NCBI GenBank assembly: GCA_023247445.1
Contig: JAHFGL010000004.1
Span: 1,520 to 65,519 of the forward strand
From: Candidatus Omnitrophota bacterium
GTDB lineage: Bacteria > Omnitrophota > Gorgyraeia > Zapsychrales > Zapsychraceae
Direction: 5' to 3'
Length of the DNA stretch: 64,000 nucleotides
In this document: positions 2,068 through 58,152 of the stretch, piece by piece
Layout: each line of letters begins with the position of its first letter
How positions within the stretch are numbered: position 1 is the first letter of the stretch
Program-made: the position numbers and the translations under genes
Notes under the pieces: model-generated
The model's input: the letters and a program-made list of their open reading frames with translations, nothing else
Told to the model about the DNA's origin: nothing
Database searches by the model: none

Positions 2068-3786
2068 ATGCATCATTTAAATGACCAAAATATTCTAATC
2101 TTTTTAATTCAGGTCCTTATCTTGTTAGCTTGTGCAAGAGGATTGGGTGAGCTTTTTCATCTCTGGCGACAGCCGCCTATGATCGCCGAGATTTTGGTTG
2201 GTGTTGTTTTGGGACCAACAATTCTGGGACGATTTTATCCGACGCTACAGCTTGCCATTTTTCCCTTAGACCCGATTCAACAAACAATGTTAGAAACTGT
2301 TGCTTGGTTGGGGGTTTTTTTCCTTCTTTTGGAAGCAGGATTAGAAATTGATTTTGCCTCTGCCTGGCGACACAAAGGGGATGCGTTAACAATTGCTTTA
2401 ACGGGTGTTGTGATTCCTATTCTCGTAAGTTTCTTAGCCTGCTTATTTCTTCCGGATCAATATTTAATCAATCCCGATCAAAGAGTTATTTTTTCACTTT
2501 TTATGGCAACGGTTATGGCGATCACCGCGATGCCGGTTGTTTCGCGTGTCCTTTATGATTTGAGTCTTTCTAAAACAGATTTGGGTTTTCTCATTATGTC
2601 AGCGCATTCGATCAACGATATTTTAGGCTGGCTTATTTTTACCCTTGTTTTAGTTTTCTTTAGTACAGGGACTATTCTTATCGGTAAGATACTGGCCTTG
2701 TCTCTTATGGTTCTTGTTTTCTTAATGGTTGCATTAACTATCGGCCGTCATTTGACAGGTCGTACGATTATGTTTATCAAGAAAAAAGCTATGCCCGAGC
2801 CGAGCACCTCGCTTACTTTTATTTGTTTATTAGGATTATTTTGCGGGATGATTACGCAAAAGATTGGGATTCATGCTTTATTTGGATTTTTTATTGCTGG
2901 GGTTATGGCCGGCGGGGCAAAAGCATTATCTGAAAAAACAAGACAAGTTATTTCCCAAATGGTCTTTGCTATTTTTGTTCCACTATTTTTCGCGAGCATT
3001 GGGCTACGCATTGATTTTTTTAAGAATTTTGATCTGTTCCTAGTTTTGTTTTTAACTGTTTTTAGTATTGTTGGAAAATTTTTGGGAGGATATGTTGGCG
3101 CATCGATAAGTAAAAATTGGCGAGATGATCGTTTGGCTATTGCCGTTGCGCATACACCTGGTGGAATGATGGAGGTTGTCGTTGGAATTTTAGCTTTTGA
3201 AAGTGGATTAATTACAGAACCTGTTTTTGTTGCTATTATTTTTGGCGCGATCTCATCATCTATTATTGTGGGGCCGTGGCTCAATTATTCGCTTAGTCGA
3301 AAGAAAGAAGTCAGCATCTTAGACTATTTCTCCAAGCGAACAATTATTGGTCAATTAAAGAGTCAACAAAAGTCAGTGGCCATTGTTGAACTTTGTGATT
3401 TAGCTTCGATGCAAGGCGCAATGCCATCGACAGAAGAAATAACTAAAGCTGTTTTTCATCGTGAAGAGTCCATGGGAACAGCTATTGAAGAGGGGATCGC
3501 TTTGCCCCATGCCCGATTAGCATCGCTTCAGCGACCGATTGTCGTTTTTGGCCGTTCACTAAATGGCATTGACTGGGATTCCCCTGATGGGAAGCCTGCC
3601 CAATTTATTTTCTTATTATTAACTCCTGAAAAGGATGAAGGGATTCAGATTCAAATTTTGCGGGCGATTGCAACGGTGATGAGTGATGTTCAAACTCGAA
3701 AGGATATTTTAAACGCTCAAGATGTTGAGGAGGTTTGGACAATTCTGCAAAAAGATTTCAACCTATTTCGGGTAAAAAGAAAATAG
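2068..3786 (+). CDS. cation/proton antiporter (Na+/H+ exchanger family) fused to a C-terminal PTS EIIA type-2 (EIIA-Ntr-like) domain
   Basis: About 12 hydrophobic helices N-terminally. C-terminal approx 150 aa carry the EIIA-2 signature AIEEGIALPHARL with a putative phospho-His. Confidence 0.75.
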   Translation: MHHLNDQNILIFLIQVLILLACARGLGELFHLWRQPPMIAEILVGVVLGPTILGRFYPTLQLAIFPLDPIQQTMLETVAWLGVFFLLLEAGLEIDFASAWRHKGDALTIALTGVVIPILVSFLACLFLPDQYLINPDQRVIFSLFMATVMAITAMPVVSRVLYDLSLSKTDLGFLIMSAHSINDILGWLIFTLVLVFFSTGTILIGKILALSLMVLVFLMVALTIGRHLTGRTIMFIKKKAMPEPSTSLTFICLLGLFCGMITQKIGIHALFGFFIAGVMAGGAKALSEKTRQVISQMVFAIFVPLFFASIGLRIDFFKNFDLFLVLFLTVFSIVGKFLGGYVGASISKNWRDDRLAIAVAHTPGGMMEVVVGILAFESGLITEPVFVAIIFGAISSSIIVGPWLNYSLSRKKEVSILDYFSKRTIIGQLKSQQKSVAIVELCDLASMQGAMPSTEEITKAVFHREESMGTAIEEGIALPHARLASLQRPIVVFGRSLNGIDWDSPDGKPAQFIFLLLTPEKDEGIQIQILRAIATVMSDVQTRKDILNAQDVEEVWTILQKDFNLFRVKRK

Positions 3787-3810
3787 AATTCTTTAGAACT
3801 TATCTTAAGA

Positions 3811-3970
3811 TTGTCATGCCTGAATGTTTTTATCAGGCATCCAGTCTTACCTCGTTTAGATTCCCGCCATTGCTTTTCTCTAAAATGAAGGTAAAGCAAT
3901 GACGGTACCAACTTCCTCTAAATTATTTTAAAGGTAAGTTGGTGCCGCTTAAAGCATGCGGGAATGACAA
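3811..3970. repeat. MITE-like palindromic element with termini TTGTCAT...ATGACAA and inner inverted repeat ATTCCCGC...GCGGGAAT; contains hairpins atgcctga/tcaggcat and ggtaccaactt/aagttggtgcc
   Basis: Seen directly in sequence between convergent genes. The 26-bp 3' end ccgcttaaagcatgcgggaatgacaa recurs identically at 30665..30690. Confidence 0.55.
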
Positions 3971-4011
3971 GCTTTTACCATTTTTTGGATAACTCCGAGT
4001 CTTTTGCTATC

Positions 4012-5700
4012 TTACAAATTTTTAATTTTAAAAATATCTTCAGCCCTGGCCAGCGCCAGATCAATATGTCCTACGATGTTCTCTTGCCCAATGCGTTCCA
4101 CAATTCCTGATTGTTTAAGTGTCATAAGAAGATTTGAATTAACTCCTGATAGAATAAGTGTTGTCTTGCTCTTCTTTAATCTGTGGAAAAGATCTTCCAA
4201 AACCCGCAGACCCGTCGCATCAATAATGGGAACATAACGCATCCGCAAAATAAGTATTTGGGGTGGTCTTTCAAATTCACGCAGCGTATCTTTAAATTTT
4301 TCCGCTGCGCCAAAAAAGAAGGGTCCATAAATTTCATAAACTTCAACCCCTGACGGAACATTGCGTTTGGAGATAGCGTTGGGATCATCTGATTCGTCAT
4401 CTTCTGCCCCAATCGATTTTGTTAGCGCATTAACTTCAGTGACTTCCACCATCCGTTTCATAAAAAGAAATGCGGCAAGAACAACACCTACTTCAATGGC
4501 GACAGTTAAATCAACAAGAACGGTCAAAGAAAAGGTGATAAGCAGTACCGCAATATCACTTTTCGTACTACGAAAAAGTTTTATAAAGGTATGCCATTCG
4601 CTCATGTTGTAGGCAACTGTAATTAAGATCCCTGCGAGTGTCGCCATGGGAATTAAGGCCGCCCATTTTCCAAAAAATAAAAATATAAGAAGAAGTGTTA
4701 TGGCATGGATGATTCCTGCCACAGGCGTTCGTCCACCATTTTTAATATTGGTAGCCGTGCGTGCAATAGCTCCTGTTGCAGGAATTCCGCCAAATATAGG
4801 AGACGCAATGTTGGCTATTCCTTGCGCAATTAATTCCATGTTGGAACGGTGCCGTCGGCCAGTCATCCCATCAGCGACAACCGCGGAGAGAAGAGATTCA
4901 ATTCCTGCGAGTAATGCAATTGTTAGCGCTGGCGATAACAATTTAGAAAATAAATCAATGTTTAAAGGAAATGAAAATGGTAGATGGGGCATTGGTAACG
5001 TGCTGGGAACTTGACCAAATCTACTTCCAATGGTTTCAATGGGTAAATGTAATAATTGTGTTATTCCCGTTGTTAAGATTATGGCAATGAGTGTTCCTGG
5101 CAACTTTTGGGTCACCCGCGGCCAAAACATAATAATGAGCACCGTCAATATTCCTAGGCCGAAGGCATCAAAATTAATGGATGGTAGATTTTGTAAGTAG
5201 GCTAACCATTTGGCGAGAAAGTGTTCTGGGGTGTGTGTTAACGTCAATCCTAAAAAATCACGGATTTGTGTTGTGAAAATAATTAAGGCAATCCCACTGG
5301 TGAATCCAACGGTAACAGGATAAGGAATAAATTTGATCACATCACCCATGCGGGCGGCCCCTAATATAATAAGGAAGATCCCCGCCATAAAAGTGGCGGT
5401 GGCGAGGCCTTCATACCCATATTGTTGAACGATGTTATAAACAATAACGATGAATGCACCGGTGGGGCCGCCAATTTGTACGCGGCTGCCGCTAAAGGCA
5501 GAGATCAAAAATCCAGCAACAATGGCCGTGTAAATTCCTTGTTCAGGTTTAACTCCGGAGGCGATGGCGAAGGCAATTGATAGCGGAAGGGCAACAATGC
5601 CAACAATAATTCCAGCGATTAAATCGTGGGAGAAAGTTTTTGCAGAGTAACCTTCTTTGATTGCCGTTATTAATTTTGGTTCAAATGTTTTAGTGTGCAT
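4012..5700 (-). CDS. SulP-family inorganic anion transporter with C-terminal STAS domain
   Basis: Sulfate-transporter N-terminal motif GIYTAIVAGFL..GGPTGA. Multi-TM core. STAS-like C-terminus ILILRMRYVPIIDATGLRVLEDL. Confidence 0.85.
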   Translation of the reverse strand: MHTKTFEPKLITAIKEGYSAKTFSHDLIAGIIVGIVALPLSIAFAIASGVKPEQGIYTAIVAGFLISAFSGSRVQIGGPTGAFIVIVYNIVQQYGYEGLATATFMAGIFLIILGAARMGDVIKFIPYPVTVGFTSGIALIIFTTQIRDFLGLTLTHTPEHFLAKWLAYLQNLPSINFDAFGLGILTVLIIMFWPRVTQKLPGTLIAIILTTGITQLLHLPIETIGSRFGQVPSTLPMPHLPFSFPLNIDLFSKLLSPALTIALLAGIESLLSAVVADGMTGRRHRSNMELIAQGIANIASPIFGGIPATGAIARTATNIKNGGRTPVAGIIHAITLLLIFLFFGKWAALIPMATLAGILITVAYNMSEWHTFIKLFRSTKSDIAVLLITFSLTVLVDLTVAIEVGVVLAAFLFMKRMVEVTEVNALTKSIGAEDDESDDPNAISKRNVPSGVEVYEIYGPFFFGAAEKFKDTLREFERPPQILILRMRYVPIIDATGLRVLEDLFHRLKKSKTTLILSGVNSNLLMTLKQSGIVERIGQENIVGHIDLALARAEDIFKIKNL

Positions 5701-5855
5701 GTTGTTTGGGATTATTGCGATGAACTGAATTATATCAAGAATATTTATTAAATATAAATAAAGATTCTTTTTTAAAATCCAAATACAATTTTATTGTGTA
5801 GACTTATTTTCTAACTTCTTTTACAATACGTTTGCTATCAATGACTTGGAGAACT

Positions 5856-24767: not shown

Positions 24768-24826
24768 CACAGATTATTTCAATTAAGCAACAGCGTTTTA
24801 AACATATGGATTGTTAAAATAAATTC

Positions 24827-24985
24827 CAATAAACAAATACCAAATGCCAAACAATATACAAATACACAAATCCCAATGGCCAAAAGTCACATTCAGTTTT
24901 GTAGCTTGTTAATTGGAGTTTTTTTGGTATTTATGATTTGGGATTTGAATATTGTCTGTGATTTGGTGCTTGGGATTTTTAATTT
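24827..24985. repeat. palindromic intergenic repeat, copy 1 (arms caaat-ccaaataccaaa / tttggtatttgtgatttgg around a core aatcccaatggccaaaa...agttttgtag.ttgttaattg)
   Basis: Shares a colinear match of approx 120 bp with 29727..29850. Confidence 0.6.
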
Positions 24986-29726: not shown

Positions 29727-29850
29727 CCAATACACAAATTCCAAATACCAAACAATATGCAAATTCAAAATCCCAATGGCCAAAATTAACTTTTAGTTTT
29801 GTAGTTTGTTAATTGCAATTTGTTTGGTATTTGTGATTTGGATATTTTAA
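29727..29850. repeat. palindromic intergenic repeat, copy 2 (same family as 24827..24985), between ABC ATPase and permease genes
   Basis: Direct sequence comparison of the two copies. Confidence 0.6.
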
Positions 29851-29855
29851 AAAAC

Positions 29856-30629
29856 ATGACCTCCCAAGAAAATTATGTAGCCTATCAAACGATCATCCGT
29901 AAAGAAGTGGTGCGCTTTATGCGTATTTGGACGCAGACGCTTTTGCCGCCGGTAATTACGCAGACATTATATTTTATTATCTTTGGAAAATTTATTGGAT
30001 CTCAAATTGGCGGGATAAATGGAATCAGTTACATGTCGTTTATCGTGCCGGGGCTTGTCATGATGGCGATTATTAACAATTCCTTTGCCAACGTAGTTAG
30101 CTCTTTTTTTGGAGCGAAGTTTCAGCGCAGCGTTGAAGAGCTTTTGGTTTCATCAACGCCACACTGGATTATTCTTGCTGGATATGTCAGTGGGGGAGTT
30201 TTGCGCGGAGTTGTCGTGGGGACGCTGGTCTTTATTGTTTCTTTCTTCTTTACCGTTCCGCATATTTATCACCCTTTTTTAATTATTGTATTTATGGTTT
30301 TGACATCGATTCTTTTTTCTTTGGGAGGGTTTATTAATGCGATCTTTGCGAAGAAATTTGATGACGTGGCGATTTTTCCAACGTTTATCTTAACTCCGTT
30401 AAGTTATTTGGGCGGCGTTTTTTATTCTATTCACAGCTTGCCGGAGGTTTGGCAGAATCTTTCAAAATTAAATCCGATCCTTTATATGATTAATGGTTTT
30501 CGTTACGGATTTTATGGAATTTCAGATGTGAATGTTTCCGTTAGTATTCTAATTTTGATTACGCTCATCATCATTTTAGCGGTTTATAGTTTGGATCTCT
30601 TAAAGAAGGGAACCGGGCTGCGAAGTTAA
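29856..30629 (+). CDS. ABC-2 type transporter permease
   Basis: Six TM segments. Internal start after the repeat. Partner of the upstream ATPase. Confidence 0.75.
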   Translation: MTSQENYVAYQTIIRKEVVRFMRIWTQTLLPPVITQTLYFIIFGKFIGSQIGGINGISYMSFIVPGLVMMAIINNSFANVVSSFFGAKFQRSVEELLVSSTPHWIILAGYVSGGVLRGVVVGTLVFIVSFFFTVPHIYHPFLIIVFMVLTSILFSLGGFINAIFAKKFDDVAIFPTFILTPLSYLGGVFYSIHSLPEVWQNLSKLNPILYMINGFRYGFYGISDVNVSVSILILITLIIILAVYSLDLLKKGTGLRS

Positions 30630-30637
30630 CTAAGGAA

Positions 30638-30690
30638 AGTCGATGCGGGCATCCAATTAGATTCCCGCTTAAAGCATGCGGGAATGACAA
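30638..30690. repeat. short derivative of the 3811..3970 element (cgatgcgggcatcc...attcccgcttaaagcatgcgggaatgacaa); looks like the two ends joined with the internal approx 110 bp missing
   Basis: 26-bp identity with 3945..3970. The inverted repeat ATTCCCGC-N10-GCGGGAAT is intact. Confidence 0.55.
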
Positions 30691-30707
30691 TCTTGGGATA
30701 ATTTCTA

Positions 30708-31736
30708 ATGAAAACTAATACTTTTAAATTAGCGTTAATCATTTTTGTTTCTCTGTTTATTTTGATTTTTGGTTTTGGGTATTATCTCTTAAACAGCTCG
30801 TGGTTTTGGGAAAAACTCGCCGTAAGTCTGATCAAGCAAGGGGGAAAAGAAGTCCAATCCGCCCAACTGAGCATCCAAAAAACAAATTTTAATCTGCCGA
30901 CAAAATTAATCTTAGAGGATGTTAAATTAAAGATTAAGATTCAAGAAGTGTCATACACAATTGATCTTAGCGGGCTCACCATTGATGCGAATTCCTTTAT
31001 CGTAGGCCGGGACAAAAAGATTGACCTTAATTTAAGCGGCCTAAGAATTGAATCATCAGTGGCTAATCTAAAAGACGCCAATATGGTGTTGGCCGTATCT
31101 TTCGAGAAGAATTTATTGAAAAGTTTAAAGGGCACTTTAAAAATCGCCTCGGCTGATTCGAATAAATATGTTTTAACCAATATTTCTGCCGATATCACGG
31201 GCGACCAAAAGAATATTGTTTTAGATAATTTCTTGGCGAGTTCTTATAACGGAGAGGTGAAAGGTAAGATTACACTAGCCTATCAACCGGCTGTTACGTA
31301 TGATATAGCCCTAGCGATCAAAGATGTCGATTTAACGGCGATGCGGGCCGCTAACATGGAGGTTTTTTCTCAGGTGCGTGGAAAGTTACAGGGAGATGTT
31401 GAATTAAAAGGTGAACCTGCTAAAATTCATTCCATCATCATGAACCTGGAGATACCTCAGGAGGGCCAAGTTAAGGCGCGGCTTCTTAAACCATTTTTTG
31501 ATTACATTCCGCAGAGCACGCAGAAAAAAGATTTAGAACTTTTGATGAAGGTTGACGGACTTGTGGCGCTGGACAAAGCCGTCCTTGCGCTAAAGAGTTC
31601 AAGCGAAGAGAAGCTAAGTACAACGATCGGACTTGAGAGCAAACGATTTAATTTAGATACACATTTAACAGTTGATTTTAATATTGAAGGTGGGCTTCAA
31701 AATTTGTTTGTTTTTCTACAGAAATTTCTTCAATAA
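30708..31736 (+). CDS. hypothetical membrane-anchored protein, possibly miniature AsmA/YdbH-like
   Basis: N-terminal TM, beta-rich. Assignment rests on gene order ahead of ynbE-like and ydbL-like genes. Confidence 0.35.
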   Translation: MKTNTFKLALIIFVSLFILIFGFGYYLLNSSWFWEKLAVSLIKQGGKEVQSAQLSIQKTNFNLPTKLILEDVKLKIKIQEVSYTIDLSGLTIDANSFIVGRDKKIDLNLSGLRIESSVANLKDANMVLAVSFEKNLLKSLKGTLKIASADSNKYVLTNISADITGDQKNIVLDNFLASSYNGEVKGKITLAYQPAVTYDIALAIKDVDLTAMRAANMEVFSQVRGKLQGDVELKGEPAKIHSIIMNLEIPQEGQVKARLLKPFFDYIPQSTQKKDLELLMKVDGLVALDKAVLALKSSSEEKLSTTIGLESKRFNLDTHLTVDFNIEGGLQNLFVFLQKFLQ

Positions 31737-38455: not shown

Positions 38456-38486
38456 TAGGAAAAATATTAGATTTTGGGTTTAAAAT

Positions 38487-38520
38487 AAAGCAGATTACTT
38501 AAATGTAATCTGCTTTATTG
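38487..38520 (+). terminator. rho-independent-like hairpin aaagcagattac-ttaaat-gtaatctgcttt
   Basis: 10-12 bp perfect stem. Near-identical hairpin recurs after paralog 4 (41129..41168). Confidence 0.55.
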
Positions 38521-41098: not shown

Positions 41099-41128
41099 CT
41101 AGGGAAATATTATTAGGATTTAAAAAAT

Positions 41129-41168
41129 GAAGCAGATTGCTTAAATGTAATCTGCTTTATTTTTTTTG
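41129..41168 (+). terminator. rho-independent terminator gaagcagattgc-ttaaat-gtaatctgcttt + T8
   Basis: Homologous to the hairpin after paralog 2, so the duplication included the 3' flanks. Confidence 0.6.
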
Positions 41169-41792: not shown

Positions 41793-42102
41793 ATATAAAA
41801 GAATGCTCAAAGGCATGTTGGCCAAGGAAAAGGCCAAGAAGAAAAGTAAAGTAAAAGAAAAATGGTTTTTGTATATTTTAGAGTGTAAGGATAAAACGTT
41901 TTATACGGGTGTGACGAATAATTTAGAACGACGGCTTAAGATGCATAACAGTGGCAAAGCCTCGCGATATACTCGAACCCGTCGGCCAGTTAAGTTTATT
42001 TATCAAGAGATTTGTGGTAGCCGAACGCAGGCCTTGGTTCGCGAATGTGCGGTTAAAGCCCTGCCGCGTAAGAAAAAACAAGAGTTGATTATTAGTGCAT
42101 AG
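41782..42102 (+). CDS. GIY-YIG nuclease domain protein (UPF0213/YhbQ-like)
   Basis: WFLYILECKDKTFYTGVTNNLERRLKMHNSG. Overlaps the tag 3' end by 11 nt. An alternative start is at 41803. Confidence 0.65.
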   Translation: MHPKYKRMLKGMLAKEKAKKKSKVKEKWFLYILECKDKTFYTGVTNNLERRLKMHNSGKASRYTRTRRPVKFIYQEICGSRTQALVRECAVKALPRKKKQELIISA

Positions 42103-52312: not shown

Positions 52313-54229
52313 ATGAGAATCCATTCTCAGCCTTTTTATAAGTCGATTGATATTTTAAATTCGGCTTTGATTCTTGTGTGCATAACTTATGCGCTTGGGA
52401 TCGTTTCTGACATTTCCTTCCTTCAGGATTTAGGAATCCTATCGTTGCTACTGCTTATTCCTTTGAAGGTATTTCTTTATTGTGGCATTTATGGAATATT
52501 AGTAGAAATAGCAAGTAAAGAGGAGGTATTGGTAAAGTTTGATCATTGGAAAGATTATGTTCGGCGATTTTGGAAAATTTACAGTATTTTGCTGGTTGTT
52601 CCTTTTTTTATTCATCTGCCATTAACCTTACTCGTCCCGTATTTTAAAAGCTTGCCTATCACTGTTGTGGTTTTTCAGTTTAATATTATTGCCTTATTTA
52701 TTTTAGCTAAGACAATCATTGCTAAGAAATATATCCAGCCTCTGGGCCTATCCGCACGGCCGATTGTCATTGATCTAAAAATAGCGGGAACGATTCTTGG
52801 GATCTACGCAATCGATATGGCCGTATTTTATTTGCCACAATTTATTGACGGCGGGCCACTTTATTTACCGAATATTTTAGGGTTTGTATCGGAATTAATC
52901 CATTACATGGAGTTTCTAATATTTGTCGTCGTTATTTTGGATGGGTATCCTGAAATTGAGAAACATCTTACTCCCGAGCGAGAATTATATATTATCAGCC
53001 CACCGAATGCCGGAGTTCGCGATAGTTTGGGATCCATTATTTATAAGCCGAATCCGGCGGTTTTTGTTGTTTTAAAGGCTTTGACTCCCAAAAATTATCG
53101 GATTCGACTATTTAATCGTGTGCCCTGGCAAAATAGGTTTTATAAAAGTAATGTTTTGGTCGCGATCACCTGCTTTACTGGGAATAGTTTTGAGGCTTAC
53201 AAAATTGCGAAAGAATTTAAAGAGAGCGGGGCAACCGTCATTATGGGCGGCCCGCATGTGACGTATTTACCGGATGAGGCTTTAGGATATTGCGATAGTG
53301 TTGTTATCGGAGAGGCGGAGGGGGTTTGGAAACAATTGATTACGGATTACGAAAATAATTCTTTGAAGAAGAAATATGTCGGTGCCGCCGAGGATAAATA
53401 CTATGAAGAGGTGCATCAAGAATTGCTTATGTCATCGCCAGAGGTGATCAGAGATTTTCTTGAGACGACACGTGGATGTAAATTTAAATGTCATTTTTGC
53501 ACTATTCCTGGATTAAGTAGCGGCCGAACACGGACAAAACCAACATTCCAGCTTGTTGAGTTGATTGAAAAGATTAAACATAAATATAATTCGGTATCTT
53601 TTATTGATAACAATATTTACAGTGATCCTGCTTACGCGAAAGAATTGTTTACTGCTTTAAAACCGCTTAAGGTTAAATGGCGAACGGCGTGTACCATTGA
53701 TATCGTTAAGAATGAAGAATTGCTCAAACTTGCCAAAGACAGCGGATGCGAGTTGCTTTTATTTGGTTACGAGATTTTTGGTAGTTCATCTGAAAAAGGT
53801 CAAGGAGGAAAATTCGCTTTAGCTGAAAAATATATTCAATTAACGGATGCCGTCAAGAAGATGGGGATCCGAGTTAAGGGGAGTTTCGTCTTTGGGTGGG
53901 ATACGGATCGGCTCCGAGACTTAATTACGTTATGGAAATTTTGTTTGAAGATCCGTCCTGAGATAACCGTCATCAATTTATTGACACCAATCCCTGGGTC
54001 CCATACGTATGACGATATGCTCAAAGAAAATTCTATTACAAATCTTAATTGGCGCAGTTACTCTTTCCATAATTTTGTTTTTAAACATAAGCATATTAAT
54101 CGACGTGTGTTGGATTTATTGTTTCCTATTCTTCGTCCATTTTTTATGTTTACGACTTCGCGTATGGGCTTTTCTGCGCTTTTCTTGTTAGTCGTGGTTA
54201 TAAGTTTGTCAGTTATGTTTAAACTCTAA
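52313..54229 (+). CDS. membrane-anchored B12-binding-domain radical SAM protein, paralog 1 (6 N-terminal TM helices + B12-binding-like + radical SAM CxxxCxxC + C-terminal TM)
   Basis: TTRGCKFKCHFCTIPGLS. B12-binding-like VAITCFTGNSFEAYKIAKEFKESGATVIMGGPHV. Hydrophobic N-terminal 220 aa. Confidence 0.75.
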   Translation: MRIHSQPFYKSIDILNSALILVCITYALGIVSDISFLQDLGILSLLLLIPLKVFLYCGIYGILVEIASKEEVLVKFDHWKDYVRRFWKIYSILLVVPFFIHLPLTLLVPYFKSLPITVVVFQFNIIALFILAKTIIAKKYIQPLGLSARPIVIDLKIAGTILGIYAIDMAVFYLPQFIDGGPLYLPNILGFVSELIHYMEFLIFVVVILDGYPEIEKHLTPERELYIISPPNAGVRDSLGSIIYKPNPAVFVVLKALTPKNYRIRLFNRVPWQNRFYKSNVLVAITCFTGNSFEAYKIAKEFKESGATVIMGGPHVTYLPDEALGYCDSVVIGEAEGVWKQLITDYENNSLKKKYVGAAEDKYYEEVHQELLMSSPEVIRDFLETTRGCKFKCHFCTIPGLSSGRTRTKPTFQLVELIEKIKHKYNSVSFIDNNIYSDPAYAKELFTALKPLKVKWRTACTIDIVKNEELLKLAKDSGCELLLFGYEIFGSSSEKGQGGKFALAEKYIQLTDAVKKMGIRVKGSFVFGWDTDRLRDLITLWKFCLKIRPEITVINLLTPIPGSHTYDDMLKENSITNLNWRSYSFHNFVFKHKHINRRVLDLLFPILRPFFMFTTSRMGFSALFLLVVVISLSVMFKL

Positions 54230-54283
54230 ACGTTAGGTTTAATCTCCGTTCGGCTTGAATCATTGAATTAAAGTAATGTCATT

Positions 54284-56206
54284 ATGATGTCTAAAGACAG
54301 CCCTTTAAAAACATCCTATGAAGTCTTGGCCTCGGTGCCGAGTCTTGTTCTTGTCACATACATGCTAGGATTGTTCTATGACACATCGTTTATCCAGGAT
54401 TTAGGATGGTCCGCCCTACTTCTTTTTATTTTCCTAAAAATAATTCTCTATAGCGGCATCTATGGTGTGTTGGTTGAGCTCGCCAGCGGACAGGAATTTC
54501 TAATTGACTTTAAGCAGTTTCGCCAGAACATCCGGGCCTTTTGGAAAATCTATTCCTTGTTATTGGTTGTCCCGTTTTTTATCCATTTTCCTCTAACGCT
54601 TTTATCAAACTATTTTAAAGCCTTGCCGGTCACCGTTGTTTTTACCCACTTTAATATCATCGCGCTATATATTTTAGCCAACTATATTATCGAGAAGAAA
54701 TACGTTAAACAACTGGGATTACCGAGAAGAAAAATTCCTCTGAGTATTTTTAATATTGTCGTGATTCTGGCTTTATACTTCATCGACTTAGGCGTTTTTT
54801 ATTTGCCGCAGTTTGTGATGACAGAAAAATATTACTTACCTAACTTTCTAGGGTTTCTTTCAGAGATCATTCATTATTTTCAGTTCTTGTATTTCTCGGT
54901 TTTAATCTTGAACTCCTATCCTGAAATTCAAAAGCATTTTACCCCGCAACGAGAACTCTTTTTGATCAATCCTTGGTGTGCGGGTATGTTGCGCAGTTTG
55001 GGATATGCCTTGTTTAGCCGCGGCTATCCACCGGCATTTGTTGTCCTTAAGGCCATGACACCAAAAAATTATAAAGTTCGCGAATTTAATCAAGTCATTT
55101 GGCGCAATCGCTATTACCGTGGGCATCCTTTGGTCGCCATTACATCTTATACAATGAGTAGCTTTGAAGCCTACAAGATTGCGAAGGGATATAAACAGCG
55201 AGGCGCAACTGTTGTTATGGGTGGGCCGCATGTGACATACTTACCTAAGGAGGCCTTGGAATATTGCGATAGTGTTGTTGTTGGAGAAGCCGAGGGAGTG
55301 TGGAAAGATGTCATTAAAGATTACGAAAATCATACCTTAAAGAAGGAATATACAGGCAGTGGCACCAAAGAATATCATGACCAAGTTTATCAAGAGCTTC
55401 TTAATTCTTCGCCCGATGTGATCAAAGACTTTTTAGAGACCACCCGGGGGTGTAAGTTTAAATGCCATTTTTGTACGATTCCTGGATTAAGCGGAGGCAA
55501 TGTGCGCAATAAACCAGTTTTTCAGCTGGTTGAATTGATTAGGAAAGTTAAGAAAAAATATAATCAAGTTACATTTATTGATAACAACATTTATAATGAT
55601 CCCGCGTATGCCAGGGAACTTTTCAAGGCGCTTAAACCTCTCAATATTAAGTGGCGTACGGCGTGTACCATTGATATTGCAAAGAATGAAGAGACCTTAA
55701 AGTTGGCAAAGGAAAGTGGCTGTGTAGGATTATTGGTTGGCTATGAGATCTCAGGAAATTCGCCTGATAGTCAGAATTTGCGCGGGAAGTTTTCGATGGC
55801 TGAACAATATCGGCGCTATACGCAAACGATCCAACAGCTTGGCATTGCCATTCGCGCTAATTTTATTTTTGGTTTTGAATCGGATCGGTTAAAAGATATT
55901 TGGCGGCTTTGGCGATACTGCTTATCGTTAGGAGCGAATTCAGCCGGGTTGGGTATTTTGACGCCGCTTCCGGGGTCACAGCTTTATCACGATATGCTTA
56001 TCGAGAATCGATTAACGAACCTCAACTGGTGTCGATATTCGATGTTTCAGTTGGTATTTAAACATAAATATTTAAACGATGCGGTTGTCTCAAAGGTTTT
56101 TCCTGTTGTTTCTGTTTTTTATTTATTAACTACGTCTAAGACAGGGCGGATTTTATTTTCACTCTTAATCATTTTGGCGTTATGCACAGTTTTATTTAAA
56201 CTTTAG
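54284..56206 (+). CDS. membrane-anchored B12-binding-domain radical SAM protein, paralog 2
   Basis: TTRGCKFKCHFCTIPGLSGG. Same conserved blocks as paralog 1: YPEIQKHFTPQRELFLINP, GPHVTYLPKEALEYCDSVVVGEAEGVW. Confidence 0.75.
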   Translation: MMSKDSPLKTSYEVLASVPSLVLVTYMLGLFYDTSFIQDLGWSALLLFIFLKIILYSGIYGVLVELASGQEFLIDFKQFRQNIRAFWKIYSLLLVVPFFIHFPLTLLSNYFKALPVTVVFTHFNIIALYILANYIIEKKYVKQLGLPRRKIPLSIFNIVVILALYFIDLGVFYLPQFVMTEKYYLPNFLGFLSEIIHYFQFLYFSVLILNSYPEIQKHFTPQRELFLINPWCAGMLRSLGYALFSRGYPPAFVVLKAMTPKNYKVREFNQVIWRNRYYRGHPLVAITSYTMSSFEAYKIAKGYKQRGATVVMGGPHVTYLPKEALEYCDSVVVGEAEGVWKDVIKDYENHTLKKEYTGSGTKEYHDQVYQELLNSSPDVIKDFLETTRGCKFKCHFCTIPGLSGGNVRNKPVFQLVELIRKVKKKYNQVTFIDNNIYNDPAYARELFKALKPLNIKWRTACTIDIAKNEETLKLAKESGCVGLLVGYEISGNSPDSQNLRGKFSMAEQYRRYTQTIQQLGIAIRANFIFGFESDRLKDIWRLWRYCLSLGANSAGLGILTPLPGSQLYHDMLIENRLTNLNWCRYSMFQLVFKHKYLNDAVVSKVFPVVSVFYLLTTSKTGRILFSLLIILALCTVLFKL

Positions 56207-56214
56207 GAACACTT

Positions 56215-58152
56215 ATGGATTTGAAGAAAGAAAAAGAAGAAATATCTTTATTAAGCAGGGCAGGGGGAATTCTTAATTCTCTGGCTTCGATGGTTTTTCT
56301 GACGTATATGTTGGATGTTCTTTTCGATAGCAATTTTGTTCAGAATCTGGGCATATTCGGTCTGTTGATTTTTATCCCGCTTAAGATTCTTCTTTTTACC
56401 GCCATGTTCGTTACCTTAATTGAGATAGCCAGTGGGGAAGAGATTCTTTTTCAATTTGCTCGCTTTAAAAGTAATGTGACTAAATTTTGGAAAATTTATG
56501 CCTTAGCGTTATGTTTGCCGCTAGCCATTTATTTTATTGTGAAGTATGTCTTTAGGTTGCCTCAAAACTTATCCATTAGTGTTTTAATGTTTCATTTAAA
56601 TATTGTTATTTTCTTTTTGGTTTCTTACGGCATTATTAATGCAAAATACATAAAGCCAGGGGCGCTAAAGAGAAGAAGCATCGTTTTAAGCTTGAAAAGT
56701 GTCGGTATTATTCTTGCCCTTTATGGATTGGATCTGGCCATTTTTTATTTACCACAGTATGTTGATACCTCAAGATTTTATCTGCCCAATCTGTTAGGAT
56801 TTCTTGCTCGATATTTAGATTTCTTTATCTTTACGTATTTATCTCTGATTATTTTTAAGCAATATCCTGAAATTGAGAAACGATTTACTTTTGATCGTGA
56901 ACTTTACTTAATCAATCCCTATCCTTATGGCGGAGATCTTCTGACGGGATTTTCCTATTCTGCGTGGCGGTGGCATCCACCTATTTTTGTTGTTTTAAGG
57001 GCATTAACGCCAAAGCATTATAAAGTCACAGAATTTAATCAACGTATTTGGGCCAATCGATATTATAAGAAAAATGCTTTAGTGGCGATTACCTGTTACA
57101 CCTCGAACTCTCCGGAGGCTTATAGGATTGCGAAAGAGTTTAAACGACGTGGTGCGACTGTCATCATGGGTGGGCCGCACATTATGTGTGTACCTCAGGA
57201 AGCCATCGATTATTGTGATAGTGTCGTTGTTGGAGATGTGGAAGGGGTCTGGCGTGAGATCATTCGCGATTATGAAAATGGATCACTTAAGAAAGAATAT
57301 TCTGGAGAATCAAAGAAAGAAGATCATGAATTTGTTCAGCAAGAACTGATGACCTCGACTCCAGAAGTGGTTAAAGACTTTTTGGAACCAACGCGAGGAT
57401 GTAAATTTAAGTGTCATTTTTGTGCGATTCCAGGCATTGTGGATAATATTAAAAGATTACCTGTTGAAGAATTCTTGTCGCTGATTAAACGGATTAAACA
57501 TAGATATAATCGTGATCTTTACTTTATTGATAGCAATATTTATTCGGATCCCGCGTATTCTAAAGAATTATTTCAAGCTTTGAAACCGATGAATGTTACC
57601 TGGCAGAGCGCGGCGACCATTGACATCGCCAAGAATCAGGAAACACTTAAATTAGCTCGAGAAAGTGGTTGTAAATTATTGTTATGCGGTTATGAAGTTC
57701 CTGCCGGATCGCTGGAAACAAAAGTTGATGGCAAATTAACGATGGCGGATCGATACATTGACTATACGCGAATTATCCAAAAAACAGGAATTAAAATAAA
57801 AGGGACGTTTATGTTTGGTTGGGAGTCAGATAGTTACAAAAGTTTATTTGAGCTATGGAAGTTTTGCTTTAAACTTAGCCCACAAATAACCGTTATGTCG
57901 ATTTTGACACCCATCCCTGGATCCAAACTTTATGTTGATATGCTTAAAAGCAATCGTTTAACGAATTTAAATTGGCGGGCGTATGCCTTTTATAGTTTGG
58001 TTTATAAACATCCCAATCTAGATAATTTTATATTTCCAAAATTATTTATCTTTATCCGATATGTGTTTTTCTTTACGACATCTACGTTCGGTCGAAAAGT
58101 TTTTATTTTTGTATTAATTGGGGTTGCGCTACTTCTTTTAACGAGGTTATAA
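56215..58152 (+). CDS. membrane-anchored B12-binding-domain radical SAM protein, paralog 3
   Basis: PTRGCKFKCHFCAIPGIV. Blocks YPEIEKRFTFDRELYLINP, GPHIMCVPQEAIDYCDSVVVGDVEGVW. Confidence 0.75.
   Translation: MDLKKEKEEISLLSRAGGILNSLASMVFLTYMLDVLFDSNFVQNLGIFGLLIFIPLKILLFTAMFVTLIEIASGEEILFQFARFKSNVTKFWKIYALALCLPLAIYFIVKYVFRLPQNLSISVLMFHLNIVIFFLVSYGIINAKYIKPGALKRRSIVLSLKSVGIILALYGLDLAIFYLPQYVDTSRFYLPNLLGFLARYLDFFIFTYLSLIIFKQYPEIEKRFTFDRELYLINPYPYGGDLLTGFSYSAWRWHPPIFVVLRALTPKHYKVTEFNQRIWANRYYKKNALVAITCYTSNSPEAYRIAKEFKRRGATVIMGGPHIMCVPQEAIDYCDSVVVGDVEGVWREIIRDYENGSLKKEYSGESKKEDHEFVQQELMTSTPEVVKDFLEPTRGCKFKCHFCAIPGIVDNIKRLPVEEFLSLIKRIKHRYNRDLYFIDSNIYSDPAYSKELFQALKPMNVTWQSAATIDIAKNQETLKLARESGCKLLLCGYEVPAGSLETKVDGKLTMADRYIDYTRIIQKTGIKIKGTFMFGWESDSYKSLFELWKFCFKLSPQITVMSILTPIPGSKLYVDMLKSNRLTNLNWRAYAFYSLVYKHPNLDNFIFPKLFIFIRYVFFFTTSTFGRKVFIFVLIGVALLLLTRL

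Follow-up and report, generated by a model that had tools for sequence, protein, structure and literature searches.

The 64,000-nt stretch of Candidatus Omnitrophota DNA analyzed here (hereafter the window, with a G+C content of about 40% and with proteins that are most similar to those of Candidatus Omnitrophota metagenome-assembled genomes) contains two intergenic sites with related hairpins, a long element at 3811-3970 and a short copy at 30638-30690. The long element occupies a 225-nt gap (3787-4011) that runs stop-to-stop between two convergent genes, a setting already described in an earlier reading of the letters alone (the original prediction) and borne out by the stops of an exchanger-EIIA gene (+) and a SulP/STAS gene (-) on either side. 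The short copy lies in a 78-nt gap (30630-30707) between co-directional genes. Together, the two sites are three copies of one module of about 35 nt, consisting of a TGTC tag, an 8-bp stem starting with AT, a 9-nt loop and a CCA or CTA tail. The long element is composed of two inverted modules (A and B) with their tags outward, the right one being split by a unique 81-nt insert, and the short copy holds a third, intact module (C). The features of the two sites are as follows.

2068-3786, plus strand: Na+/H+ exchanger-EIIA gene; its stop borders the gap of the long element
3784-3808, minus strand: outer tail of module A, 25 nt, of which 19/25 agree with the module C tail; touches or overlaps the TAG that ends the upstream gene
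3809-3844, plus strand: module A; tag GA-TTGTC, stem ATGCCTGA (3816-3823) and TCAGGCAT (3833-3840), loop ATGTTTTTA (3824-3832), tail CCAG (3841-3844)
3845-3856, no strand: spacer between the inverted modules A and B; the position of the ssn gene in full-length units elsewhere
3857-3867, minus strand: module B, inner part; tail TAG (reverse complement CTA) and arm ATTCCCGC (3860-3867)
3868-3948, no strand: 81-nt insertion within module B, between arm and loop, with two hairpins (3868-3901 and 3904-3946)
3949-3972, minus strand: module B, outer part; loop TTAAAGCAT (3949-3957), arm GCGGGAAT (3958-3965), tag GACAAGC (3966-3972)
4012-5700, minus strand: SulP/STAS gene; its stop borders the gap of the long element
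29820-30629, plus strand: ABC-2 permease gene, upstream of the short copy
30645-30655, plus strand: stump of the left partner module, read against canonical dimers; 3' arm GCGGGCAT and tail CCA, without 5' arm, loop or TGTC tag
30658-30692, minus strand: module C, intact; tail TAG, stem ATTCCCGC (30661-30668) and GCGGGAAT (30678-30685), loop TTAAAGCAT, tag GACAATC (30686-30692)
30693-30717, plus strand: outer tail of module C; holds GGGA and the ATG (30708) of the AsmA-like open reading frame (ORF)
30708-31736, plus strand: AsmA-like ORF, downstream of the short copy

Anatomy of the three modules

Several elements of the original prediction were recovered by direct reading, namely the termini TTGTCAT and ATGACAA (3811-3817 and 3964-3970), the inner inverted repeat ATTCCCGC/GCGGGAAT and the two internal hairpins, both at the positions listed above, and the final 26 bp shared with the short copy (3945-3970 versus 30665-30690, 26/26 identical). 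What had been overlooked is that the left end of the long element is a hairpin too, ATGCCTGA-ATGTTTTTA-TCAGGCAT at 3816-3840, with the same geometry as the ATTCCCGC hairpin, i.e., an 8-bp stem and a 9-nt loop, with GACAATC following on the opposite strand, and with a stem that differs from the ATTCCCGC stem by three compensatory changes. The likeness also extends outside the hairpins into the two outer tails (3784-3808 versus 30693-30717), and the inverted match between 3784-3841 and 30660-30717 amounts to 76% identity.

The relationship between the two sites had been described as that of a full-length element and an internally deleted one, the short copy consisting of the two ends directly joined, and this part of the prediction had to be replaced. 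The short copy lacks the TTGTCAT left terminus and its partner module is reduced to the 3' arm and tail, so that it is to be regarded as a left-truncated dimer rather than as joined ends, the long element being a dimer with an 81-nt insert. Module C is identical in a contig (L001) of an independent assembly. Its tail contains GGGA, a likely ribosome-binding site, as well as the start codon ATG of the AsmA-like ORF; in module A, the corresponding places of the tail read AAGA and AAG. The start of the AsmA-like gene may thus derive from repeat sequence.

The 81-nt insert of module B carries CGC on either side (3865-3867 and 3946-3948), and a second copy of it was found neither in the window nor among some 160 fetched loci; same-strain contigs had just the identical locus. 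Its first hairpin reads CGTCAT-TGCTTT-16 nt-AAAGCA-AT on the minus strand and is possibly a degenerate module.

Folding of the hairpins gave z-scores of -7.5 and -8.1 as RNA and of -4.7 to -6.8 as DNA (-5.1 for module A alone, as DNA), with stable DNA hairpins on both strands. Related sequences were used to build a covariance model (R1), which, when searched over the 64-kb window, recovered module A with 59.6 bits (E = 1.9e-11), module C with 57.8 bits (E = 5e-11) and module B with 34.0 bits (E = 1e-5, an interrupted match at 3934-3976); beyond these three modules, the search of the window returned nothing better than E = 0.4.

Distribution across genomes and the associated nuclease gene

The distribution of the module was surveyed by scanning one genome per species (596 Gb, both strands) with the 24-nt pattern TWAAASCATNCNGGNATGACAAKC, which constrains the loop, one arm and the tag only. 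The pattern matched 68 contigs from more than 12 phyla, with about 2 expected by chance according to our own arithmetic; the carriers belong to Planctomycetota (anammox bacteria), Bacteroidota, Ignavibacteria, Calditrichia, Gemmatimonadota, gamma- and deltaproteobacterial groups, Nitrospirae, Omnitrophota, Dadabacteria, Actinomycetota, KSB1 and others. The arm left free by the pattern is complementary to the constrained arm in 98.5% of cells, and double compensatory changes are seen at three of the eight stem pairs (UA/CG/GC, 22/17/12; CG/AU/GC/UA, 40/5/4/1; AU/CG, 32/17). The termini of the element, a lack of whose conservation had been named in advance as speaking against the original prediction, are therefore conserved far beyond this genome. 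Four matches in IMG/VR viral contigs (L070 2236-2259 and three others) were rejected; they fall in a conserved phage ORF (..VEDRLKAFWNDNPNARI..) with no second arm and no hairpin, and they provide a gauge of the false positives of the pattern. A metagenome scan for the lineage-specific tail yielded 0 matches, in a collection that does not include this organism.

The usual unit in other genomes is 80-90 nt long and reads (T)TGTCAT-stem-loop-stem-ATCCAG, followed by a 15-25-nt spacer and an inverted module ending in ATGACAA(G/T)C. Solo hairpins of 35-37 nt, longer units and variants with extra hairpins nested in the loop, like the window copy, are found as well, and such nested insertions into module loops are frequent (window module B, L060, L069, L052 and L028). 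Units of 130-175 nt recur in other genomes at 91-98% identity with unrelated flanks, as exemplified by a 141-nt unit present at two sites of an Omnitrophota metagenome-assembled genome (MAG), 97.9% identical and again with unrelated flanks.

Some units carry a gene between the modules. On a 1.6-Mb anammox contig (L034), two inverted modules exactly enclose an ORF of 103 aa in which Pfam recognizes a GIY-YIG domain (E = 3e-18), an arrangement repeated at loci L042 and L008, with a decayed version of 345 nt at L014. The final codons of the L034 ORF (DWIPAKSMRE) are encoded by the module, and at L034 5331-5739 as well as L074 351-662 the Ssn-type C-terminus (..DWIPA..) is encoded by the 3' hairpin module (alignment A3), so that the gene of the nuclease overlaps with the site it presumably recognizes. 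The L074 protein, HCD38919.1 from an Omnitrophota MAG, is a homologue with 78% identity whose gene is also preceded by a hairpin. Among the candidates scored, at least 7,957 homologues were counted at E <= 1e-10, with 68-79% identity between phyla.

In the anammox contig L034, inverted repeats of about 40 nt (TATAGTAAAGGCAATAA...) at 5290-5330 and 5740-5779 bracket the hairpin-ssn-hairpin unit. They are also present at L008, L014, L032, L041 and L042, where the copies diverge beyond them, and their arrangement suggests a larger composite mobile unit.

The association was then examined in an independent sample of 80 JGI metagenome loci picked by the GIY-YIG protein alone. A GTCAT-hairpin was present within 160 nt upstream of the gene in 54/76 loci, at its 3' end in 53/78 and on both sides in 39/74, predominantly in the tags-outward orientation; the background of this loose detector, about 0.35 matches/kb in random sequence, corresponds to about 5 expected per side. 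A second detector, which asked for a perfect 8-bp G+C-containing hairpin and made no other requirement, returned 459 strand-wise calls from the 80 loci, 143 of which have the form GTC-palindrome-C, with ATTCCCGC as the commonest arm. Among 147 GTC-tagged hairpins of ssn loci, 143 have the 3' C, and loops of 9 nt occur in 32, among them the module A loop ATGTTTTTA; the tail of the ssn-flanking modules is CCAG 94 times and CTAA 2 times. A cognate transposase or integrase, which the original prediction proposed to look for, did not emerge in any classical form: when the ORFs around the modules of 68 loci were clustered, the GIY-YIG nuclease of about 100 aa was the sole recurrent family, and no recombinase gene stood beside any module. 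A match of 13 nt between the 81-nt insert of the window and the REKQ codons, considered as a possible ssn remnant, has E of about 0.5, lacks collinearity with another short match and is probably due to chance.

Family membership, dispersal and alternative readings

The closest published families are the CGTC-tagged REPs of Di Nocera et al. and the NTS/SRM repeats of Chenal et al. The former, described in 2013 as families CGTC-1 to -4, have the tag CGTC, often TGTC (with CCTC allowed), an 8-9-bp stem starting with AT, a loop of 4-5 nt and a CCA tail; they occur mostly as HH dimers with the tags outside and a 20-100-bp spacer, between convergent or co-directional ORFs (PMC3733652). They were reported from five phyla, mainly from Alphaproteobacteria, include the neisserial dRS3 (CGTC-1) and the rickettsial RPE-4 and RPE-6, and had no dedicated enzyme known at that time, no RAYT or IS200 gene having been found flanked by them (PMC3733652). 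In 2025, Chenal et al. widened dRS3 to the 28-nt NTS and the degenerate SRM (Ssn-related motif), which are spatially linked to ssnA, a small single-domain GIY-YIG gene (PMC11893778). SsnA binds and cuts the motif only as single-stranded DNA (ssDNA) and on one strand, with no action on RNA; the three nucleotides 5' of the palindrome determine cleavage, and the C just 3' of it determines binding (PMC11893778). In N. meningitidis the NTS/SsnA system modulates transformation, and the authors pointed out that NTS-ssnA-NTS resembles an insertion sequence, drawing a parallel with the REPs of the RAYT/IS200 type (PMC11893778).

The window modules agree with the CGTC repeats in all of these features except the length of the loop. 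The tag is found as TTGTC (3811-3815) in module A and as the reverse complement of GACAA in modules B (3966-3970) and C (30686-30690); the stems ATGCCTGA/TCAGGCAT and ATTCCCGC/GCGGGAAT are both of 8 bp, with A-T and T-A as the first pairs; module A has the tail CCAG, whereas modules B and C have CTA(A), and each of these tails also occurs among the ssn-flanking modules; and modules A and B form a dimer with outward tags between convergent genes, with module C lying between co-directional ones. Heterodimers with differing stems, and dimers nested in host palindromes, are also on record for the CGTC REPs (PMC3733652). The agreement with NTS/SRM includes the orientation-specific series GTCAT, ATTCCCGC...GCGGGAAT and ATC(C/T)(A/G)G, the intergenic location and the presence in many phyla; in other genomes, modules of the same sub-family flank, in inverted orientation, an approximately 100-aa single-domain GIY-YIG gene (L034, L042, L008, L074 and the JGI loci), as published for NTS-ssnA (PMC11893778). 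On direct reading, the nucleotides corresponding to the SsnA determinants (GTC 5' and C 3' of the palindrome) are kept in all three window modules, and the end of the L074 gene, CTGGATTCCCGCTTTCGCGGGAATGACA, in which the hairpin forms the last codons, matches the Neisseria NTS consensus, taken as reverse complement, at 27/28 positions. The original prediction had noted that the form of the element recalls dRS3, and the link goes deeper than form, as dRS3 itself falls within both the CGTC-1 REPs (PMC3733652) and NTS/SRM (PMC11893778), and the window modules have in common with the dRS3-type repeats their tag, an 8-bp stem that begins with AT, the ATTCCCGC/GCGGGAAT core and a C following the palindrome. 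The window type differs from NTS/SRM in that its loop has 9 nt (ATGYTTTWA) instead of 3-5 nt and the first base of the tag is T instead of C, and Omnitrophota were not among the phyla studied in detail by Chenal et al. (PMC11893778). The family has thus been described twice already, and what is new here is a sub-family with 9-nt loops and its presence in a new phylum, Omnitrophota.

Taken together, the two sites are likely to represent three CGTC/TGTC-tagged, dRS3-related repeats of the NTS/SRM kind that have spread with the Ssn nuclease, in which the long element is a gene-less, MITE-like (miniature inverted-repeat transposable element) derivative of a hairpin-ssn-hairpin unit that was later enlarged, and the short copy is a left-truncated dimer. 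The long element is best read as such a derivative because its tags-outward dimer is the very arrangement that flanks the ssn gene. In the mechanism envisaged, DNA that becomes single-stranded during replication, repair or uptake would allow each module to fold into a hairpin, which would be bound by a single-domain GIY-YIG Ssn nuclease encoded outside the window, the palindrome and the C just 3' of it acting as the binding determinants. The nuclease would then cut a few nucleotides 5' of the TGTC tag, on the tag-bearing strand only, and the repeats would spread and persist together with the nuclease gene, module B having been enlarged at a later time by the 81-nt insertion. We infer both the action of Ssn on these copies in this organism and the debt of the repeats to that enzyme for their spread.

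It has to be noted that a number of observations weigh against this explanation. The 9-nt loops of the modules (ATGTTTTTA and, on the tag strand, ATGCTTTAA) fall outside the 4-5 nt of the CGTC REPs (PMC3733652); given that 32/147 ssn-locus hairpins have loops of this length, they look like a further sub-family rather than a reason for exclusion. The published SRM pattern, HGTCWYN(0-2)YYVSBRHN(0-5)WNVSBRGN(0-2)RNCYNB (PMC11893778), has 0 exact matches in the window, where module C and module B with the insert removed are 1 substitution off and module A is 3 off; applied to 49 modules that represent this sub-family in other genomes, the pattern gave 15 exact matches and 36 with at most one substitution. 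The 64-kb window contains no ssn-type gene, and tblastn with Ssn finds in it only a gene of the UPF0213 type. This GIY-YIG ORF (41797-42102, plus strand) is of the single-domain UPF0213/YhbQ type (PDB 1zg2, E = 1.4e-16), shares 40% identity over 78 aa with the Ssn-type nucleases found beside hairpins and has no modules adjoining it, so that repeats flanking a GIY-YIG gene are seen for the same sub-family elsewhere and not in the window. The comparison of the flanked GIY-YIG proteins with N. meningitidis SsnA covers the spacing of the catalytic residues, which agrees (Y8/Y19/E66 versus Y6/Y17/E64). The copy count suggested with the original prediction turned up many module copies in other genomes and just three modules, at two sites, within 64 kb of window. 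Three assemblies of this organism share the same 225-nt gap without presence/absence polymorphism, and the nearest relatives, 63% identical and not syntenic, provided no empty site. The window copies may also be inert relics, module B being disrupted and module C lacking a partner.

Whether the units as a whole move is a related matter. The original prediction of a MITE-like character holds in that the element is small, non-coding, dispersed and bounded by inverted repeats whose ends are kept in other genomes, and across genomes gene-bearing, decayed and miniature versions are all found. In the deltaproteobacterial MAG PRO9, a 130-nt unit with the outer inverted repeat GAGGCTGTTGCAGATTG occurs at L037 716-845 and L049 917-1046, each time inside the loop of a host palindrome (..ATCCCGG / CCGGGAT..), with direct duplication of this loop on both sides (AACG and CTCAT), and in an anammox MAG (L030 770-941) a 172-nt unit lies between 7-nt direct repeats, GCTACAT. 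Of the target-site duplications that the original prediction proposed to look for, related units show candidates (AACG, CTCAT and GCTACAT), and the window copies have no definable one apart from the CGC around the insert. A contig of an independent same-strain assembly (L075 5260-5450, ENA ERZ27280176 k141_8604754) stops 5 nt past the right end of the long element, which fits with an assembly break of the kind that repeats often cause. We consider it possible, with somewhat less than even confidence, that hairpin-ssn-hairpin units are autonomous mobile elements of an unestablished class, which would use an ssDNA-specific GIY-YIG nuclease in place of a transposase and prefer hairpin loops, and that the window element is their MITE. 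The series from full-length through decayed to miniature units and the loop duplications at some units are compatible with such mobility, and the near-identical modules, together with nucleases of 68-79% identity, across Planctomycetota, Omnitrophota, Patescibacteria and Deltaproteobacteria would then reflect ongoing horizontal spread.

Comparison with other classes of small repeats shows a mixture of likenesses and differences. NIMEs, in which dRS3 units are interleaved with RS repeats, are mosaics of dRS3-type hairpins and other short repeats, and the long element can be seen as a small mosaic of this kind, although NIMEs are large many-unit arrays and the element here is a single dimer with one unique insert. 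Classical MITEs (Correia elements, Chunjie, Nezha) are likewise small, non-coding, dispersed, intergenic, bounded by terminal inverted repeats and present in full-length and miniature versions, and the short direct repeats beside some related units recall them too; in the window element, however, the termini are themselves hairpins, and no target duplication is definable for the window copies. To our knowledge, the window-type units, unlike classical MITEs, have no DDE transposase parent.

Of the alternative explanations, the one that survives best, though we regard it as unlikely, is that the hairpins act chiefly at the RNA level, as bidirectional or factor-independent terminators or 3' stabilizers for the convergent transporter genes, with copy C serving as an intercistronic processing or stability element. 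The position of the elements just past stop codons, in the convergent (3787-4011) as well as the co-directional gap (30630-30707), and the high stability of their RNA folds would agree with such a role, and many REPs have been argued to be transcribed and to act on RNA (PMC3733652). Yet no T-run follows any of the stems and a search for intrinsic terminators was negative, the module occurs in both orientations relative to genes, and an orientation-specific unpaired tag and tail are conserved across phyla and flank a nuclease gene; SsnA, for its part, is inactive on RNA (PMC11893778). A side-effect on RNA is conceivable but would leave the family unexplained.

Improbable as a main explanation, but plausible as a secondary role, is the use of the hairpins as landing pads for other mobile DNA, such as elements of the IS110/IS1111 type or filamentous phages, for the sake of which they would mainly be kept and of which the 81-nt insert would be one landing. 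This is suggested by the role of dRS3 as the target of a phage recombinase in Neisseria (PMC11893778), by the frequent loop insertions described above and by the units in L037 and L049, which sit in the duplicated loop of a host palindrome. Such a use would be secondary, however, and would explain neither the origin of the modules nor the conservation of tag and tail nor the link with ssn; no recombinase gene adjoins any module, and the 81-nt insert has neither terminal repeats nor known relatives.

Mobilization by a Y1/HUH transposase of the RAYT or IS200/IS605 kind, which would make the modules REP/REPIN- or PATE-type repeats, appears very improbable. The anatomy is certainly similar, as GTAG REPs/REPINs with RAYT and the IS200/IS605-derived PATEs also comprise short hairpins with an unpaired tag, inverted dimers as the replicating unit, nesting in palindromes and a single-copy gene between its own repeats, and the parallel was drawn by the authors of the Ssn study themselves (PMC11893778). 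The tag is nevertheless TGTC/CGTC and not GTAG, no RAYT/IS200 gene has been found flanked by CGTC repeats (PMC3733652), the only recurrent neighbor in 68 + 80 loci is a gene of the GIY-YIG and not the HUH/Y1 fold, and the presumed cut sites are arranged differently, the tags of a dimer being on opposite strands where the ends of IS200/IS605 are on the same strand.

A role as structured non-coding RNA or small ribozyme for the three-way junction of module B with its insert (3857-3972), as its strong fold (z of about -6 to -8) and a weak Rfam match to hammerhead HH10 (RF02277, 21.2 bits, E = 0.07) might suggest, can hardly be maintained, since the score is far below the gathering score of 75, direct reading shows no hammerhead core (CUGANGA ... 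GAAA), the closing helix is an ordinary module stem and the insert, having no second copy, offers no conservation in favor of such a function. Besides this match, Rfam gave nothing relevant at gathering or E-value thresholds. The window holds no tRNA or tmRNA that could serve as an integration target, and an integron attC was rejected, no RYYYAAC/GTTRRRY boxes being seen on direct reading.

Neighboring features and wider meaning

Further repeats and gene families were noted in the window. Another intergenic repeat, unrelated to the hairpins, about 120 nt long and with an A/C-rich arm (CCAATAAACAAATACCAAATGCCAAAC...), is present at 24825-24945 and 29727-29846 with about 88% identity; it is an imperfect palindrome (arms 29729-29762 and 29813-29846, 82% complementary), one copy of which precedes the short hairpin copy by only 0.8 kb. 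Between 36000 and 41200 there are four to five tandem paralogues ending in PEP-CTERM-type signals (VPEP..LLGSGLLGA..RRKK), two of which are followed by terminator-like conserved palindromes (38482-38519 and 41126-41163). The UPF0213-type ORF at 41797-42102 has a tag-like glycosylase ORF and a HIT-family ORF as its neighbors. Three tandem paralogous genes of about 1.95 kb occupy 52500-58000, with 66-73% DNA identity and a spacing of 1974 and 1949 nt, and are annotated as B12-binding radical SAM proteins on a same-strain contig.

For annotation, the finding means that the two odd intergenic structures are to be labeled as selfish or domesticated hairpin repeats, and not as riboswitches, terminators or attachment sites. 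It extends the range of the almost invariant 9-nt-loop sub-family to Omnitrophota and at least a dozen other phyla, in metagenome-assembled genomes, and it ties the "orphan" CGTC REPs of 2013 to the Ssn nuclease of 2025 by way of full-length, decayed and miniature units. If the units are mobile, they would offer a simple natural example of spread that requires no more than a 100-aa ssDNA nuclease and a 35-nt hairpin, which would be of relevance to ssDNA tools.

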